From: Candidatus Saccharimonadota bacterium
GTDB taxonomy: Bacteria > Patescibacteriota > Saccharimonadia > Saccharimonadales > Saccharimonadaceae
Direction of reading: 5' to 3'
NCBI GenBank assembly: GCA_017460625.1
Contig: JAFUAT010000003.1
Span: 222 to 64,221 of the forward strand
Length of the DNA: 64,000 bases
The position numbers were made by a program, and so were the translations under genes. The notes under the pieces were generated by a model. The model worked only from the letters and a program-made list of their open reading frames with translations, searched no databases and was not told the origin of the DNA. Position 1 is the first letter of the stretch, and every line of letters begins with the position of its first letter. Below are positions 1 through 4,202 of this stretch, one piece after another.

Positions 1-129
1 CATGTACTACTACTCCGGTAGCTTATATTCCGGCAGCTACGACTATCGGGGCCTCGGGTACTCGGTACGGTGTATCCGTACTAGCTAGTAGGCATTTCTT
101 GCTTGCTCTGAGAGCTCCGGCTCTCTCCG
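1..129 (+). repeat. DGR variable repeat (VR) plus IMH region
   Basis: Aligns without gaps to the reverse complement of 2346-2474 with 12 mismatches: 11 at TR adenines and one G(TR)/A(VR). Confidence 0.95.
2..88 (+). CDS. 3' end of DGR target protein (C-type lectin-like, FISUMP/major-paralogous-domain style C-terminus), partial
   Basis: Frame 2 reads MYYYSGSLYSGSYDYRGLGYSVRCIRTS* (TAG 86-88, second TAG 89-91). The GxSVRC ending is typical of DGR CLec targets. Confidence 0.88.
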   Translation: MYYYSGSLYSGSYDYRGLGYSVRCIRTS

Positions 130-149
130 TTCCTCCACCCGAGCAAAAA

Positions 150-171
150 GCCGCGGCTCGTAAGCCGCGGC
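150..171. promoter_or_regulatory. GC-rich hairpin downstream of VR (DGR cis-acting stem-loop; could also be a minus-strand terminator)
   Basis: gccgcggct-cgta-agccgcggc, a 9-bp perfect stem flanked by A-runs, absent from the TR copy. Confidence 0.7.
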
Positions 172-202
172 GAAAAACCATTTAAATTTTGAAGATATTA
201 CT

Positions 203-1159
203 ATGACAGATAATGATAAAAATATACCAAAAAATCTAAGTAAGAGTGCTGTACGAGACGCAGTTAATGAAAAACGTATTTCGCGGGGGCGTGGTCGGAC
301 AGATGCTGAAAAGAAAGCAAACTATAGTGCTTATGAAAAACGAAAGAAACTTGTCTTTGAGATAGAGAAGAAGAATAAGCAGTATTTAGTACTGTTTCTT
401 GCGTCGGATGGGAAACTTGATGAGAATGGCCGTGGTGGTATTTTTGACGACAAGAACTACTATATTATGGGCGGCAATTCGGCAGTGGTGTATGTTTCTG
501 AAATTGGACCACGGATTGGTAGAACACCAGTACTTAAACCTGATACGGATAATTCTCAAGTTAAATTTAGGACTGGTCTTGCGGGTATCAAGGGGCTAAA
601 TAAGTTTACGGCAGCGCTTAAGGGTATTAATATCGAGCGTGTAGAAACAAAAAGTGGAGATGAGATAGCGTATTTCAAACTACCACAAGAGTTTACTAAG
701 GACGAAATTGATACAATGATGAAGCAACAGAAAGTAACACGCGACGAAGCTAATGCGTTAGTTTATTCTAGGGTACTTCATCCGAGTTTACATAAACCGA
801 TAATCGAATTAAGAACATTGTTGATTCATAAAATTAAGAATACGGTTCCTGAATACCGTGTAGCACTGGGAAACGAAATTGTTGGGTTGGTGTTGGAGCT
901 AAAGGACGAATATATTATGATGGTACGTGAAGCTATGAATGAGCGTGAGTTGCTTCTCAAAATGCAGATTACGGTGGATAAAATTTGCGATAGAATTGGG
1001 ATGATGATGGATTTGCAACTTTGGGATGTATTGTTTTGTATCAGGGCGGGAAGTCAAGCGGCGAGAATACAACGAGAGATTAGTGCATTGATTAATAAAT
1101 ATGATGCGACATTAAAAAAGAAAGAGAAAGAAAAGAATGAAGCTAACTGCAAAAAATGA
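203..1159 (+). CDS. avd: DGR accessory protein: C-terminal Avd-like four-helix bundle with an N-terminal MutS-domain-I-like region
   Basis: Lies between VR and RT. aa ~194-300 follow the Avd pattern (PEYRVALGNEI...LLLKMQITVDKI...LQLWD...IQREISALI); aa ~58-150 resemble MutS domain I (YLVLF..YYIMGGNSA..LAGIKGLNKFTAAL). Confidence 0.72.
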   Translation: MTDNDKNIPKNLSKSAVRDAVNEKRISRGRGRTDAEKKANYSAYEKRKKLVFEIEKKNKQYLVLFLASDGKLDENGRGGIFDDKNYYIMGGNSAVVYVSEIGPRIGRTPVLKPDTDNSQVKFRTGLAGIKGLNKFTAALKGINIERVETKSGDEIAYFKLPQEFTKDEIDTMMKQQKVTRDEANALVYSRVLHPSLHKPIIELRTLLIHKIKNTVPEYRVALGNEIVGLVLELKDEYIMMVREAMNERELLLKMQITVDKICDRIGMMMDLQLWDVLFCIRAGSQAARIQREISALINKYDATLKKKEKEKNEANCKK

Positions 1160-2303
1160 AGATAGTGATGATAAAAAATGGTTGGAGAATTATTGGCACA
1201 GGTTGATGTATGAGTTATACATCTCATATCTTTATGCTAGACGTGGTGGAAAGAGGGGGACCTTTGATGAGCATAAATTTGAAGTTTTTGATTTTATTCA
1301 TCTATATAGTTTGATGGAAGCCATTAAAGATAAAAAATATTATCCGTCGAGGGGGACGGCACATATTATTTTTAACCCGGTAATCAGAGAGATTTTTGCG
1401 GCGGCTTTTAGGGATAGGGTGGTGCATCACTGGATATATATGTTGATATATGATTGGTGGGATAAACAATTTATCTTTGATTCTTATTCCTGTAGAGAGG
1501 GGAAAGGGACTTCTCTTGGGGTGTTAAGGTTGCAAGAGCAGATTGTGGAAGCTCAAAAGGAGTATAATGAACGGGTGTGGGTAATAAAACTAGATATTAG
1601 GGGGTATTTTATGAGTATTAATCGACAACTTTTGTACAAGCGGGCGGTTTGGGGATTAAACCAGCAGTTCAAGGGCTGCTATGGAATAACATATGAGTTA
1701 GCGAAGTTTTGTTTACATGAAATAATATTTGATGATCCGGTGAAAGGGGCGAAGAAGAAAGGATGGCCACAGGACTGGCGGGAACTACCAAGGACGAAAA
1801 GTCTGATTTTTCAGTTACCAGGTATAGGGATAGTGATTGGAAACTTGACCTCGCAACTTCTTTCCAATATTTATTTGGATCAACTTGATAAGTATGTAAC
1901 ACGGTCGTTGGGATGGAAATACTACGGAAGGTATGTGGATGATTTTTATTTTATTGTGCCGGAAAGTATGAAAAAGAAAGCGATTGATGATATTGCTGCT
2001 ATCGAGAGATTTTTGAAGCGGTTAGGATTGACGCTTCATCCAGATAAAAGAAGTGTTCAGCCAGCGGAAAGGGGGACGGCGTTTCTTGGGGCGGTGATAT
2101 ATCCTACGGTAATTCATCCAGGCAAAAGACTGAAGAAAAACGCGAGAAAGGCGTTTCGTGATTTTGCGAATGGGGAGGGTTCCATTGAGACGGTGGTGTC
2201 TTATATTGGGCACATGAAATACATGAAACATCATAAGTTTTTGTCATCTTTATGTGAAGAAGTGGGTTTACCGAAAAGTTTTTGGATGCAATATGAAAAA
2301 TGA
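1137..2303 (+). CDS. DGR reverse transcriptase
   Basis: FRDRVVHH, SYSCREGKG, KLDIRGYFMSI, IGNLTSQLLSNIYLDQLD (DGR-type GxxxSQ), RYVDD, LHPDK; no maturase or endonuclease domain. Confidence 0.96.
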   Translation: MKLTAKNEDSDDKKWLENYWHRLMYELYISYLYARRGGKRGTFDEHKFEVFDFIHLYSLMEAIKDKKYYPSRGTAHIIFNPVIREIFAAAFRDRVVHHWIYMLIYDWWDKQFIFDSYSCREGKGTSLGVLRLQEQIVEAQKEYNERVWVIKLDIRGYFMSINRQLLYKRAVWGLNQQFKGCYGITYELAKFCLHEIIFDDPVKGAKKKGWPQDWRELPRTKSLIFQLPGIGIVIGNLTSQLLSNIYLDQLDKYVTRSLGWKYYGRYVDDFYFIVPESMKKKAIDDIAAIERFLKRLGLTLHPDKRSVQPAERGTAFLGAVIYPTVIHPGKRLKKNARKAFRDFANGEGSIETVVSYIGHMKYMKHHKFLSSLCEEVGLPKSFWMQYEK

Positions 2304-2304
2304 T

Positions 2305-2333
2305 AAAGGGTAGGTTTTGCCTACCCTTTCTTT
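2305..2333. terminator. Probable bidirectional intrinsic terminator between the RT mRNA and the antisense TR RNA
   Basis: aaagggtagg-ttttg-cctacccttt, a 10-bp stem with T-rich tails in both directions. Confidence 0.7.
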
Positions 2334-2345
2334 AAAGGTGGAATG

Positions 2346-2580
2346 CGGAGAGAGCCGGAGCTCTCAGAGCAAGCAAGAAATGCCTACTAGCTAGCACGGA
2401 TACACCGTACCGAGTTCCCGTTGTTCCGATTGTTGTTGTTGCCGGAATATAAGCTACCGGAGTTGTAGTTCATGTTGTAACGATTCGTACTATTGTTTGC
2501 GGTAGAAGACCACCAGTTCCCGTTCGAGCCGACATTGTTCGGCGAGCCATTGTTGTAGTTCCCACTATAGACGGGGGAGA
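2346..2580 (-). repeat. DGR template repeat (TR), inverted relative to VR and RT; its upstream boundary cannot be fixed in this window
   Basis: Minus strand reads PVYSGNYNNGSPNNVGSNGNWWSSTANNSTNRYNMNYNSGSLYSGNNNNRNNGNSVRCIRAS* with 20 AAC/AAT codons; 2346-2474 matches the VR. Confidence 0.94.
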
Positions 2581-2889
2581 AAGCAGAAACAAGCTTATTT
2601 CTACTTTAACGTGCTGGGAGGAAGCACAACTACGAAATTATGAGGCTATGAAACTGTAATGATAGCAGAATATAACTTGGACTACATACAAAACAGCTAA
2701 CAATCTACAACAGGCAAGGAACAACTTGCAGAATATCTGTAATTGCCATTTGTGAAATGGGTGTTCCTGACCTCCACCTTTTTTGCAGTTTTTTGGCAAG
2801 ATTGGCTATGCCAGTGTCTTCCTTGAAACTGGGGCTTTGCCCTATGATGTATATTATAAATCGGATTACTGGTTAGTTGGAGTGCGGAT

Positions 2890-2969
2890 TGACTAATTTA
2901 AAGTCTGGGCCTGACTTTTTTAAAGCTGAGAGCTGACTTTTTTAAAGTCTTGGCTTGACTAATTTAAAG
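2890..2969 (+). repeat. Four iteron-like direct repeats TGACT(AAT/TTT)TTAAAG with an exact 22-bp period
   Basis: Copies start at 2890, 2912, 2934 and 2956; each is partly palindromic (GACT..AGTC). Confidence 0.9.
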
Positions 2970-2983
2970 TGCTAGAGTATAAT
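2955..2983 (+). promoter_or_regulatory. Sigma70-type promoter of the ATPase gene
   Basis: TTGACT (2955-2960), 17 bp, TATAAT (2978-2983); ATG 7 nt further on. Confidence 0.8.
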
Positions 2984-2990
2984 ATGGGAT

Positions 2991-4202
2991 ATGTACAAGA
3001 GAGAAATAGAACAGAGAATTAGGCAAATTTCAGATACCTTTAAGGTGCTAGTGGTTACTGGGCCACGGCAGGTTGGCAAGACTACGTTGCTTGAATCAAT
3101 GATGCCAAAAAATATGACAAAAATTTCTTTGGACGATGAGACGCTTCGCACTGAAGCTAAAGAAAATCCGCAGTTCTTTTTGAATACCTATAAGGCCCCG
3201 CTTTTTATAGACGAAGTGCAATATGCGCCGGAGCTTTTACCTTATATCAAAATGCGAGTGGACGCATCTAATGAAAAAAGTCAATATTGGCTTTCGGGCT
3301 CGCAAGCTTTTAATTTGATGGAAGGGGTTAGTGAATCGCTTGCTGGAAGAGCTGGCATTGTAGAGATGAATAGTTTTACATATCGGGAGCTGTCGCGACT
3401 CTTGGACAAAACTGCGGTTTTTGATCCATCACAAATAAAAGAATCATCGCCGATTCTTACTGATGAAGTTTTTGAACGTATTTTTGTCGGTGGAATGCCT
3501 GAATTATATAATACCCCGGAAATATCGCGGAATGATTTCTTTGACTCGTATATAAATACATATATTCAGCGGGATGTACGCCAGGTTAAAAATGTAGGGA
3601 GTCTGGAAGATTTTCGTCGATTTATGAAGGACATTGCTCTTCGTAATGGTAAGCCACTCAATTATTCTGATATAGCCGCGGAGATTGGCGTTTCTTCTGT
3701 GACGATTAAAACCTGGGTTTCTATACTGATTACTTCAGGTATTATCGTTTTGCTGGAGCCTTTTTATACGAAGAAATTAAAACGTTTGACGCATATGCCG
3801 GAAATTATCTTTATGGATTCCGGATTGGCTTGTTTTCTTGCTGGTTTTGAAACGGTGTTTGGGCTACAATCTAGTGAATATGCCGGGAGTTTTCTTGAAG
3901 CTTATGTAATATCGGAGCTAGTTAAGGGATACCGGAATAATGGGTTACAAACGAATTTTACTTATATTCGGAATAAAGAGACTGAAGAAATAGATTTACT
4001 CATTGAAAGAGACCTTGTTTTGTATCCTTTTGAGATTAAAAAGACATCCAACCCTAAGCCTGAGATGTTGAAGAATTTTCAGATGCTTGATAATGTTGAT
4101 TCAAAGGTTGGTGTTGGCGGGTTGATTTGTCTTTATGACAAAATGATGCCGCTTGGTGAAAAGAAATTTGTAATACCTATTTCTAGTGTTATTGCTGGGT
4201 GA
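2991..4202 (+). CDS. AAA+ ATPase with DUF4143-type C-terminus (COG1373-like; wHTH plus PD-(D/E)xK-like tail)
   Basis: GPRQVGKTT Walker A, FIDEVQ Walker B, LSGSQ, SLAGR, FMDSGLA, EIDLLIE..PFEIK. Confidence 0.88.
   Translation: MYKREIEQRIRQISDTFKVLVVTGPRQVGKTTLLESMMPKNMTKISLDDETLRTEAKENPQFFLNTYKAPLFIDEVQYAPELLPYIKMRVDASNEKSQYWLSGSQAFNLMEGVSESLAGRAGIVEMNSFTYRELSRLLDKTAVFDPSQIKESSPILTDEVFERIFVGGMPELYNTPEISRNDFFDSYINTYIQRDVRQVKNVGSLEDFRRFMKDIALRNGKPLNYSDIAAEIGVSSVTIKTWVSILITSGIIVLLEPFYTKKLKRLTHMPEIIFMDSGLACFLAGFETVFGLQSSEYAGSFLEAYVISELVKGYRNNGLQTNFTYIRNKETEEIDLLIERDLVLYPFEIKKTSNPKPEMLKNFQMLDNVDSKVGVGGLICLYDKMMPLGEKKFVIPISSVIAG

Follow-up and report, generated by a model that had tools for sequence, protein, structure and literature searches.

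To our knowledge, the mechanism of diversity-generating retroelements (DGRs) has been worked out almost wholly on a single phage element, whose template and helper RNA lie in the operon of the reverse transcriptase (RT). DGR RTs misincorporate at adenines of the template (PMC6182149, PMC7826257). Cryo-EM of BPP-1 showed that Sp, downstream of the template repeat (TR), pairs with the TR in a template:primer duplex and also with a segment upstream of the TR, in the avd:Sp ‘cPRT stop’ duplex, which is followed by a UNCG stem-loop; distal duplexes of upstream with downstream segments were predicted in 207 of 278 DGRs (bioRxiv 10.1101/2023.10.23.563531). TR and RT on opposite strands have been published as rare (PMC3521204, PMC5758913, PMC6602519), and MyDGR also calls it rare for the TR and its variable repeat (VR) to lie on opposite strands (PMC6602519). 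Three ‘inverted’ DGRs have been described, from which it was concluded that the mRNA of the RT and the template RNA do not have to be parts of a single unit (Schillinger et al., 2012; PMC3521204); in Group 4 of that work, the opposite strands show RT and TR to be separate transcription units.

Here, we analyzed a window of 64,000 nucleotides (contig C14, positions 222-64221; all coordinates without a contig name refer to the window) from a genome of 0.71 Mb in 14 contigs and 40% GC, close homologues of whose RT are publicly named Candidatus Saccharibacteria. The window holds an intact DGR, with a TR/VR pair, an RT and an Avd-like accessory protein. On the plus strand, the 3′ end of the target gene with its VR is followed by a GC hairpin, the accessory ORF and the RT gene, and the TR module lies inverted after the RT:

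1-129, plus strand: 3′ part of the VR with IMH-like identity; the target stop codon TAG is at 86-88, and the VR starts upstream of the window, at C14:106
150-171, no strand assigned: GC-rich hairpin of 9 bp, 21 nt past the end of TR/VR identity and found at the VR only
203-1159, plus strand: accessory protein of 318 aa, with a predicted N-terminal alpha/beta domain and a predicted C-terminal Avd-like four-helix bundle
1137-2303, plus strand: DGR reverse transcriptase of 388 aa (PF00078), with IGNLTSQ and YVDD
2295-2329, minus strand: terminator-like hairpin (2305-2329) and U-tract, overlapping the last RT codons
2334-2343, minus strand: 3′ strand of helix P1, UUCCACCUUU (the ‘CCACC box’), which pairs with leader positions 2772-2781
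2346-2590, minus strand: TR of 245 nt, including a non-mutagenised 3′ part
2350-2365, minus strand: GAGAGC-UCCG-GCUCUC hairpin within the TR
2591-2846, minus strand: structured leader of 256 nt, containing P0, Pa, the 5′ strand of P1, and P2
2832-2842 (P0), 2786-2831 (Pa), 2772-2781 (P1, 5′ strand) and 2717-2768 (P2), minus strand: leader helices
2853-2858, minus strand: -10 hexamer TATAAT of the predicted TR RNA gene, without a -35 box

The arms of an inverted repeat, 1-129 and 2346-2474, are 91% complementary, and on the whole contig the match extends to 245 nt at 91.8% identity (C14:106-350 with C14:2567-2811; E = 2e-98). Nineteen of the 20 differences fall on an A of the minus-strand copy. 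This adenine bias identifies 2346-2590 on the minus strand as the TR, and the pair is thus of the DGR kind, with its differences at TR adenines. The VR ends 3-4 codons ahead of the target TAG, in a target gene that is cut by the contig end. Three more VR-like matches to this TR were found in the genome, at C9:106-350, C5:24140-24342 and C7:83114-83296. The VRs of C9 and C14 differ almost exclusively at TR adenine sites. The C5 copy sits inside a Fib_succ_major gene (PF09603, 6.6e-12, with a weak Lcl_C match), and through this paralogue the VR can be placed at the 3′ end of a ligand-binding target of the CLec type. The C7 copy, in a 68-codon ORF, may be a relic.

In the published DGR literature, a motif 4 of the form [LIV]GxxxSQ together with YxDD is the signature of DGR-type RTs. 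Both are present in the RT of the window (IGNLTSQ at residues 234-240, YVDD at 266-269), which matches PF00078 at 1.7e-12; the nearest NCBIfam model is that of group II intron RTs, and the match is below its cut-off. For the accessory protein, we found no Pfam or PDB sequence match. However, in a Foldseek comparison of its AF2 model (pLDDT 89.8), the C-terminal bundle aligned with Avd chains of 4DWL and 8UB7 at a target TM of 0.73-0.86 and a probability of 0.99-1.0, with weak E-values of 0.04-0.5. The model thus points to an Avd fold at the C-terminus, as in the Avd-type accessory proteins of DGRs. The extra N-terminal alpha/beta domain, of ~130 residues (window 203-780, residues 1-190), is conserved across the genus and gave no fold match in the whole-model search; some homologues carry an N-terminal HTH domain instead.

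As the initial annotation had stated, the TR (2346-2590, minus strand) lies 3′ of the RT stop (2303) on the opposite strand. TR homology ends at 2346, 42 nt past that stop, and the repeat points the opposite way to the RT and to the VR next to it. In its order of target, accessory gene, RT and TR, the locus resembles architecture B2, avd-RT-TR (Wu et al., 2018; PMC5758913), but B2 is drawn with the TR on the RT strand, and here it is on the opposite one. With the ‘inverted’ Group 4 (Schillinger et al., 2012; PMC3521204), the locus shares an RT and a TR on opposite strands; there, however, TR, VR and target all lie opposite the RT, whereas the window has its adjacent VR and target on the same strand as the RT, and we found the Group 4 arrangement only in eight related cassettes. 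The CPR architecture B3, TR-(avd)-RT (PMC5758913), is also from Patescibacteria, and there too no single operon unites the TR with both protein genes. Its avd gene is the inverted element, and its TR sits upstream, on the strand of the RT; in the window, the accessory gene and the RT point the same way, and it is the TR module, downstream, that is inverted.

The inversion could in principle be an assembly artefact caused by the TR/VR repeat, since only ~105 nt of C14 precede the VR, and the first 141 nt of this contig are also those of C9. This overlap reflects a branch of the assembly graph, with an assembler k of 141, at a second VR copy. The longest exact identity between TR and VR is ~50 nt, well below k; an exact copy of the TR, in the same place and orientation, is present in three other assemblies that derive from different samples; and the inverted layout recurs in 40 related cassettes, many of them in the middle of contigs of 100-550 kb. 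On these grounds mis-assembly of the inversion is excluded, its chance being negligible, and the inverted TR is real.

We then compared the locus with its relatives. Homologous RTs occur in 55 of 101 genomes of the same genus. Among 46 in-genus cassettes that we fetched, 38 had a detectable adenine-biased TR/VR pair, and in 36 of these 38 (a count that includes a second DGR of the source genome) the TR lies opposite the RT strand, its start falling within -64 to +180 nt of the RT stop. The VR lies upstream on the RT strand, as in the window, in 28 of the 36; in the other eight, the TR strand carries target and VR as well, upstream of the TR module. The two exceptions are L060 (G430:C9), in which the inverted TR module is between the target and the accessory gene, and L077 (G453:C9), whose TR follows the RT on the same strand, at a distance of 363 nt. 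All four closer metagenome relatives (RT 63-67% identical) share the layout of the window. The survey of Saccharibacteria DGRs that the initial annotation had proposed thus bears out the orientation, and the comparison gives, as the conserved core, an operon of accessory gene and RT that converges on a TR module.

Elsewhere in the order, in families other than this one, the TR either follows the RT on the RT strand or precedes it on the opposite strand. A TACAAT box lies 231-253 nt upstream of the TR, on the TR strand, in 10 of 12 cassettes from these families. It seems to be general in the order that the TR has a promoter of its own and a leader of ~240 nt, and the convergent orientation of the TR module relative to the RT appears to be the trait specific to the genus. 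The opposite-strand DGRs of Wu et al. (2018; PMC5758913) are scattered rarities, whereas here the arrangement is a genus-wide rule with a conserved leader; in the literature searched, we found no description for Saccharibacteria of such a lineage-wide rule with a leader-first template RNA. The architecture by itself, which the initial annotation had called unusual, is thus not new: TR and RT on opposite strands are a published rarity, which in this genus is the norm. It is the fixation across a lineage, together with the leader-first RNA, that is worth following up.

The minus-strand TATAAT that had been noted at 2853-2858 is indeed present, and a promoter scan found no matching -35 box for it. 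We counted the hexamers TATAAT, TAAAAT and TACAAT from -335 to -155 of the TR in the related cassettes. On the TR strand, 29 of 35 cassettes have such a -10 hexamer 155-335 nt upstream of the TR, compared to an expectation of 26% (binomial P = 5e-12); the same search of the other strand gave 13 of 35. The extended form TGnTAnAAT occurs in many cassettes, and across seven close-clade units (the window and six relatives) the -10 box aligns in a single column.

Upstream of this promoter, four copies of TGACTWWTTTAAAG, spaced exactly 22 nt apart, occupy 2890-2969. They sit between the TR promoter and the TTGACT-17-TATAAT promoter of an AAA_14/DUF4143 ATPase gene (2991-4202), and the motif is absent from the rest of the genome.

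These findings bear on whether the TR is transcribed separately at all. The template could instead be the 3′ UTR of the accessory-RT mRNA, that is, a plus-strand antisense TR, given that the TR directly follows the RT stop and that most cassettes are without a terminator between RT and TR. A plus-strand RNA, however, carries U at the variable sites, and DGR RTs err at template adenines (PMC6182149, PMC7826257); moreover, both the -10 enrichment and the helices with G-U pairs described below are specific to the minus strand. We consider a 3′ UTR template extremely improbable. Since the adenine bias is found on the minus strand only, the TR must be read from that strand, and comparison among the relatives supports the interpretation of 2295-2858 (minus) as a stand-alone, convergent template-RNA gene, with predicted transcription and RNA ends. 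Of the separate ~540-nt template RNA claimed earlier, the adenine bias, the conserved -10 box and the pairing of the leader, all comparative, speak in favor, and the missing -35 box speaks against. The further proposal that mutagenesis could be switched on and off independently of the RT is plausible, but is speculation only.

The initial annotation had described an ORF-free, hairpin-rich leader of ~260 nt. The leader (2591-2846) is 256 nt long and has conserved helices; it is not strictly ORF-free, as it contains one 53-codon ORF starting with TTG, which is unconserved and has no Pfam match. Over 35 related leaders, the longest ORF has a median of 31 codons. A search of positions 1-3100 against Rfam returned chance-level matches only. 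In single-sequence folds, each leader of the close clade displays the same series of elements. P0, a 5′ hairpin of the form GGGG...CCCC, starts ~5 nt after the predicted start of the RNA. It is abutted by the Pa hairpin, whose closing helix varies among CAGUUU/AAACUG, CGACUUU/AAAGUCG, CGGCUU/AAGCCG and AGCCUA/UAGGCU. An A-rich linker and the block GGUGGAGGUC follow, and then P2, in which AGGAAUA pairs with UAUUCCU around two small hairpins. P0 and Pa are read from the single-sequence folds and stand outside the formal count, as MAFFT misaligned both. In P2, six of seven pairs show a compensatory change by RNAalifold, or four of seven on the full-length alignment.

The fourth helix, P1, joins the leader to the far side of the TR. 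The GGUGGAG of the leader is complementary to a CUCCACC located 2-3 nt past the end of TR/VR homology, giving a helix of 8-10 bp between 2772-2781 and 2334-2343. Compensatory changes preserve it: GGUGGGG pairs with CCCCACC in L089 and L090, GGAUGGGG with CCCCAUUU in L088, and at the helix end an A-U pair is swapped to U-A. Over P1 and P2 in the close clade, 90.2% of cells are paired, compared to 81.1% when shuffled (0 of 500 shuffles as high); seven pairs are changed on both sides, compared to 3.4 (1 of 500 as high); and the covariation score is 0.272, compared to 0.130 (0 of 500 as high). This set comprises seven related sequences, and L089 and L090 share their changes, so the independent events are fewer than the changed cells. 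When the 3′ partners were slid by 1-3 columns, only 44-51% of cells paired.

Sequence conservation of the leader is confined to the clade whose RTs are at least ~60% identical: an nhmmer profile of the conserved leader block matched the close clade only, and blastn of the leaders gave few pairs. For the more distant cassettes, we therefore assessed structure by permutation rather than by alignment, using the score of ungapped helices between leader and 3′ flank, as RNAduplex on long segments gave uninterpretable structures with large loops. Across 35 cassettes, the native complementarity is 20.9, compared to 17.9 +/- 0.47 for permuted pairs (0 of 20000 as high; z = 6.4), and many cassettes have leader/flank helices of 9-13 bp that are unrelated in sequence. 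The MFE fold of the 551-nt RNA is also stable (z = -6.2) and contains both P1 and the terminator; the leader alone, at z = -0.9, is no stabler than shuffled sequence. G-U pairs within the helices are valid on the minus strand only. Counts of G-U versus A-C beside the helices were uninformative, both being at or below the prediction from base composition. Because the P1 helix joins them, leader and TR 3′ flank would lie on one RNA, and these data support a leader that is a conserved, structured RNA pairing with the TR 3′ flank.

Two further ideas about the leader were rejected. Its derivation from the TR, as an inverted copy since decayed, was dropped as a general explanation, because local alignment against shuffles gave z = 0.6 here and a mean of 0.8 across cassettes. 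A candidate pairing of leader CCCGUU with TR AACGGG was discarded as a primer duplex, as the VRs show mutagenesis of adenines that lie 3′ of it.

Inverted repeats of 8-13 bp that flank the TR in many cassettes could also act as DNA, with the P1 arms serving as sites at which an invertase flips the TR, a form of DGR phase variation; L077, with its TR on the RT strand at +363, would fit this. Yet 40 of 42 cassettes and every independent assembly of this locus agree in orientation, none of the conserved neighbors is a recombinase gene, and the covariation of P0, Pa and P2 along with the G-U pairs points to selection at the level of RNA. An invertase is thus very unlikely, and we prefer the reading of P1 as an RNA helix.

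On the 3′ side of the TR, the order of elements is the P1 3′ strand (2334-2343), an A-rich stretch, the hairpin at 2305-2329 and a U-tract. The hairpin has a 10-bp stem and a 5-nt loop, is followed on the minus strand by AUCAUUUUUC, and could plausibly terminate transcription in both directions. The U-tract, at 2295-2303, corresponds to the conserved last codons of the RT (…FEK*, GAAAAATGA) and is in the same place in L043-L090, so that the C-terminus of the RT would constrain the end of the TR RNA, and vice versa. We find a recognisable terminator in 8 of 35 cassettes, and in 4-5 of 7 close relatives; in several cassettes TR homology overlaps the RT stop. The bidirectional hairpin of the initial annotation, placed ~17 nt from the end of the TR/VR match, is therefore present, at 16 nt, but is not conserved: the terminator hairpin is real here and does not define the lineage. 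The short 3′ spacer proposed with it holds up, as ~50 nt separate the TR end from the terminator U-tract at the RT stop.

The flank of the VR mirrors that of the TR, with a CCUCCACCC box at 133-141, an A-run and then the 9-bp GC hairpin at 150-171. As a terminator, this hairpin would face the minus strand, and it is more likely to be the cruciform of a DGR target.

With the RNA elements in hand, the locus can be set against the BPP-1 DGR (mtd-avd-TR-brt; PMC6182149). The two share adenine-specific transfer from TR to VR, an RT with a partner of the Avd fold (predicted here), IMH-like identity that extends beyond the stop codon, and a GC hairpin behind the VR. With the avd-TR-Sp RNA of BPP-1, the predicted RNA also shares a UNCG-type hairpin near an upstream-downstream duplex, and P1, with its compensatory changes and the signal over 35 cassettes, is the evident counterpart of that duplex. 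The differences are considerable. In contrast to BPP-1, RT and adjacent VR share one strand and the TR lies on the other, with its own predicted promoter; the non-coding scaffold would be the ~256-nt leader 5′ of the TR; the upstream strand of the duplex lies ~180 nt before the TR, rather than within 20 nt; and the accessory protein has the extra N-terminal domain. A long downstream spacer like that of BPP-1, with its priming adenosine and protein-binding elements, was not found: ~50 nt follow the TR, compared to ~140 nt of Sp. The P1 helix suggests that the 5′ leader, rather than priming from a short 3′ spacer, may supply much of the role that the downstream spacer has in BPP-1.

The layout observed, the extent to which it is conserved, the adenine bias, the enrichment of the promoter motif and the covariation of the RNA lead us to think that 2295-2858 on the minus strand is quite probably a self-contained, non-coding template-RNA module of an intact Saccharibacteria DGR. 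In the model that we propose, the -10 box (2853-2858), of the sigma-70 type, would start an RNA of ~550 nt made up of a 256-nt folded leader (P0, Pa, P2), the 245-nt TR and a 3′ tail of ~50 nt. P1 (2772-2781 with 2334-2343) would enclose the P2 domain, the remaining leader and the TR, and in the cassette of the window the hairpin and U-tract abutting the RT stop would end the RNA. The module would converge on an operon formed by the Avd-like accessory gene and the RT gene, whose products, as a complex, would bind the RNA and copy the TR into adenine-mutagenised cDNA. The VR next to it, which is on the opposite strand, would then be replaced by this cDNA, as would at least two or three further VRs in other parts of the genome.

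How much of this work the leader does is a separate matter. We tentatively entertain a leader-first RNA, in which the elements for RT/Avd binding, priming and stopping would be carried by a leader of ~200-300 nt that P1 clamps to the CCACC box; such a module would be autonomous and could sit in either orientation relative to the RT, and would have become fixed as convergent in the genus. Alternatively, the leader may be no scaffold and may act as a regulatory element, such as an attenuator sensing a ligand or protein, or an RNA-stability element, that sets the amount of TR RNA. The leader is structured and conserved, as a regulator would be, and the four phased 22-nt repeats just upstream of the promoter are unique; those repeats, however, occur in the cassette of the window only, no Rfam family matched, and P1 ties the leader to the 3′ boundary of the TR, which in BPP-1 is the priming/stop site (bioRxiv 10.1101/2023.10.23.563531). 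We regard a purely regulatory leader as unlikely. Just 5′ of the P1 3′ strand, a conserved CCNGCA linker contains an adenosine, and a UNCG-type hairpin precedes the linker; by analogy alone, the two are candidate elements.

If the proposed model of a template-RNA module is right, then the lineage would be a natural counter-example to the phage element: a separate, convergent template RNA gene with most of its conserved structure upstream of the template. It could make testable how universal certain features of DGR RNAs are, namely the upstream-downstream duplex, the UNCG hairpin and priming in cis. Helices P0, Pa, P1 and P2 and the CCACC box are concrete targets for mutation, and the predicted ~550-nt RNA and compact two-protein system could be used for reconstitution. 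Tools for annotation will mis-call such cassettes, which are common in the genus, if they expect the TR within the operon or on the strand of the RT, and assemblies of these genomes break at VRs.

Finally, the VRs of the relatives and of the source genome itself yielded further observations. Beside the accessory-RT operon, the VR of L083, from another sample, differs at adenine sites from those of L085 and C14, and the TR is identical, a pattern that ongoing mutagenic retrohoming could leave. The L083 variant is, however, the C9 copy: L083:112-356 is letter-for-letter identical to C9:106-350, whose downstream flank differs. Recombination between paralogous targets, or a chimeric contig, is a possible reason for this identity. 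The source genome also contains a second DGR with the same layout, on contig C3 (116-2714), with a plus-strand VR at 116-353, a plus-strand RT at 1323-2441 and a minus-strand TR at 2477-2714. Its RT is 43% identical to that of the window, and contig C3 starts ~115 nt before its own VR.
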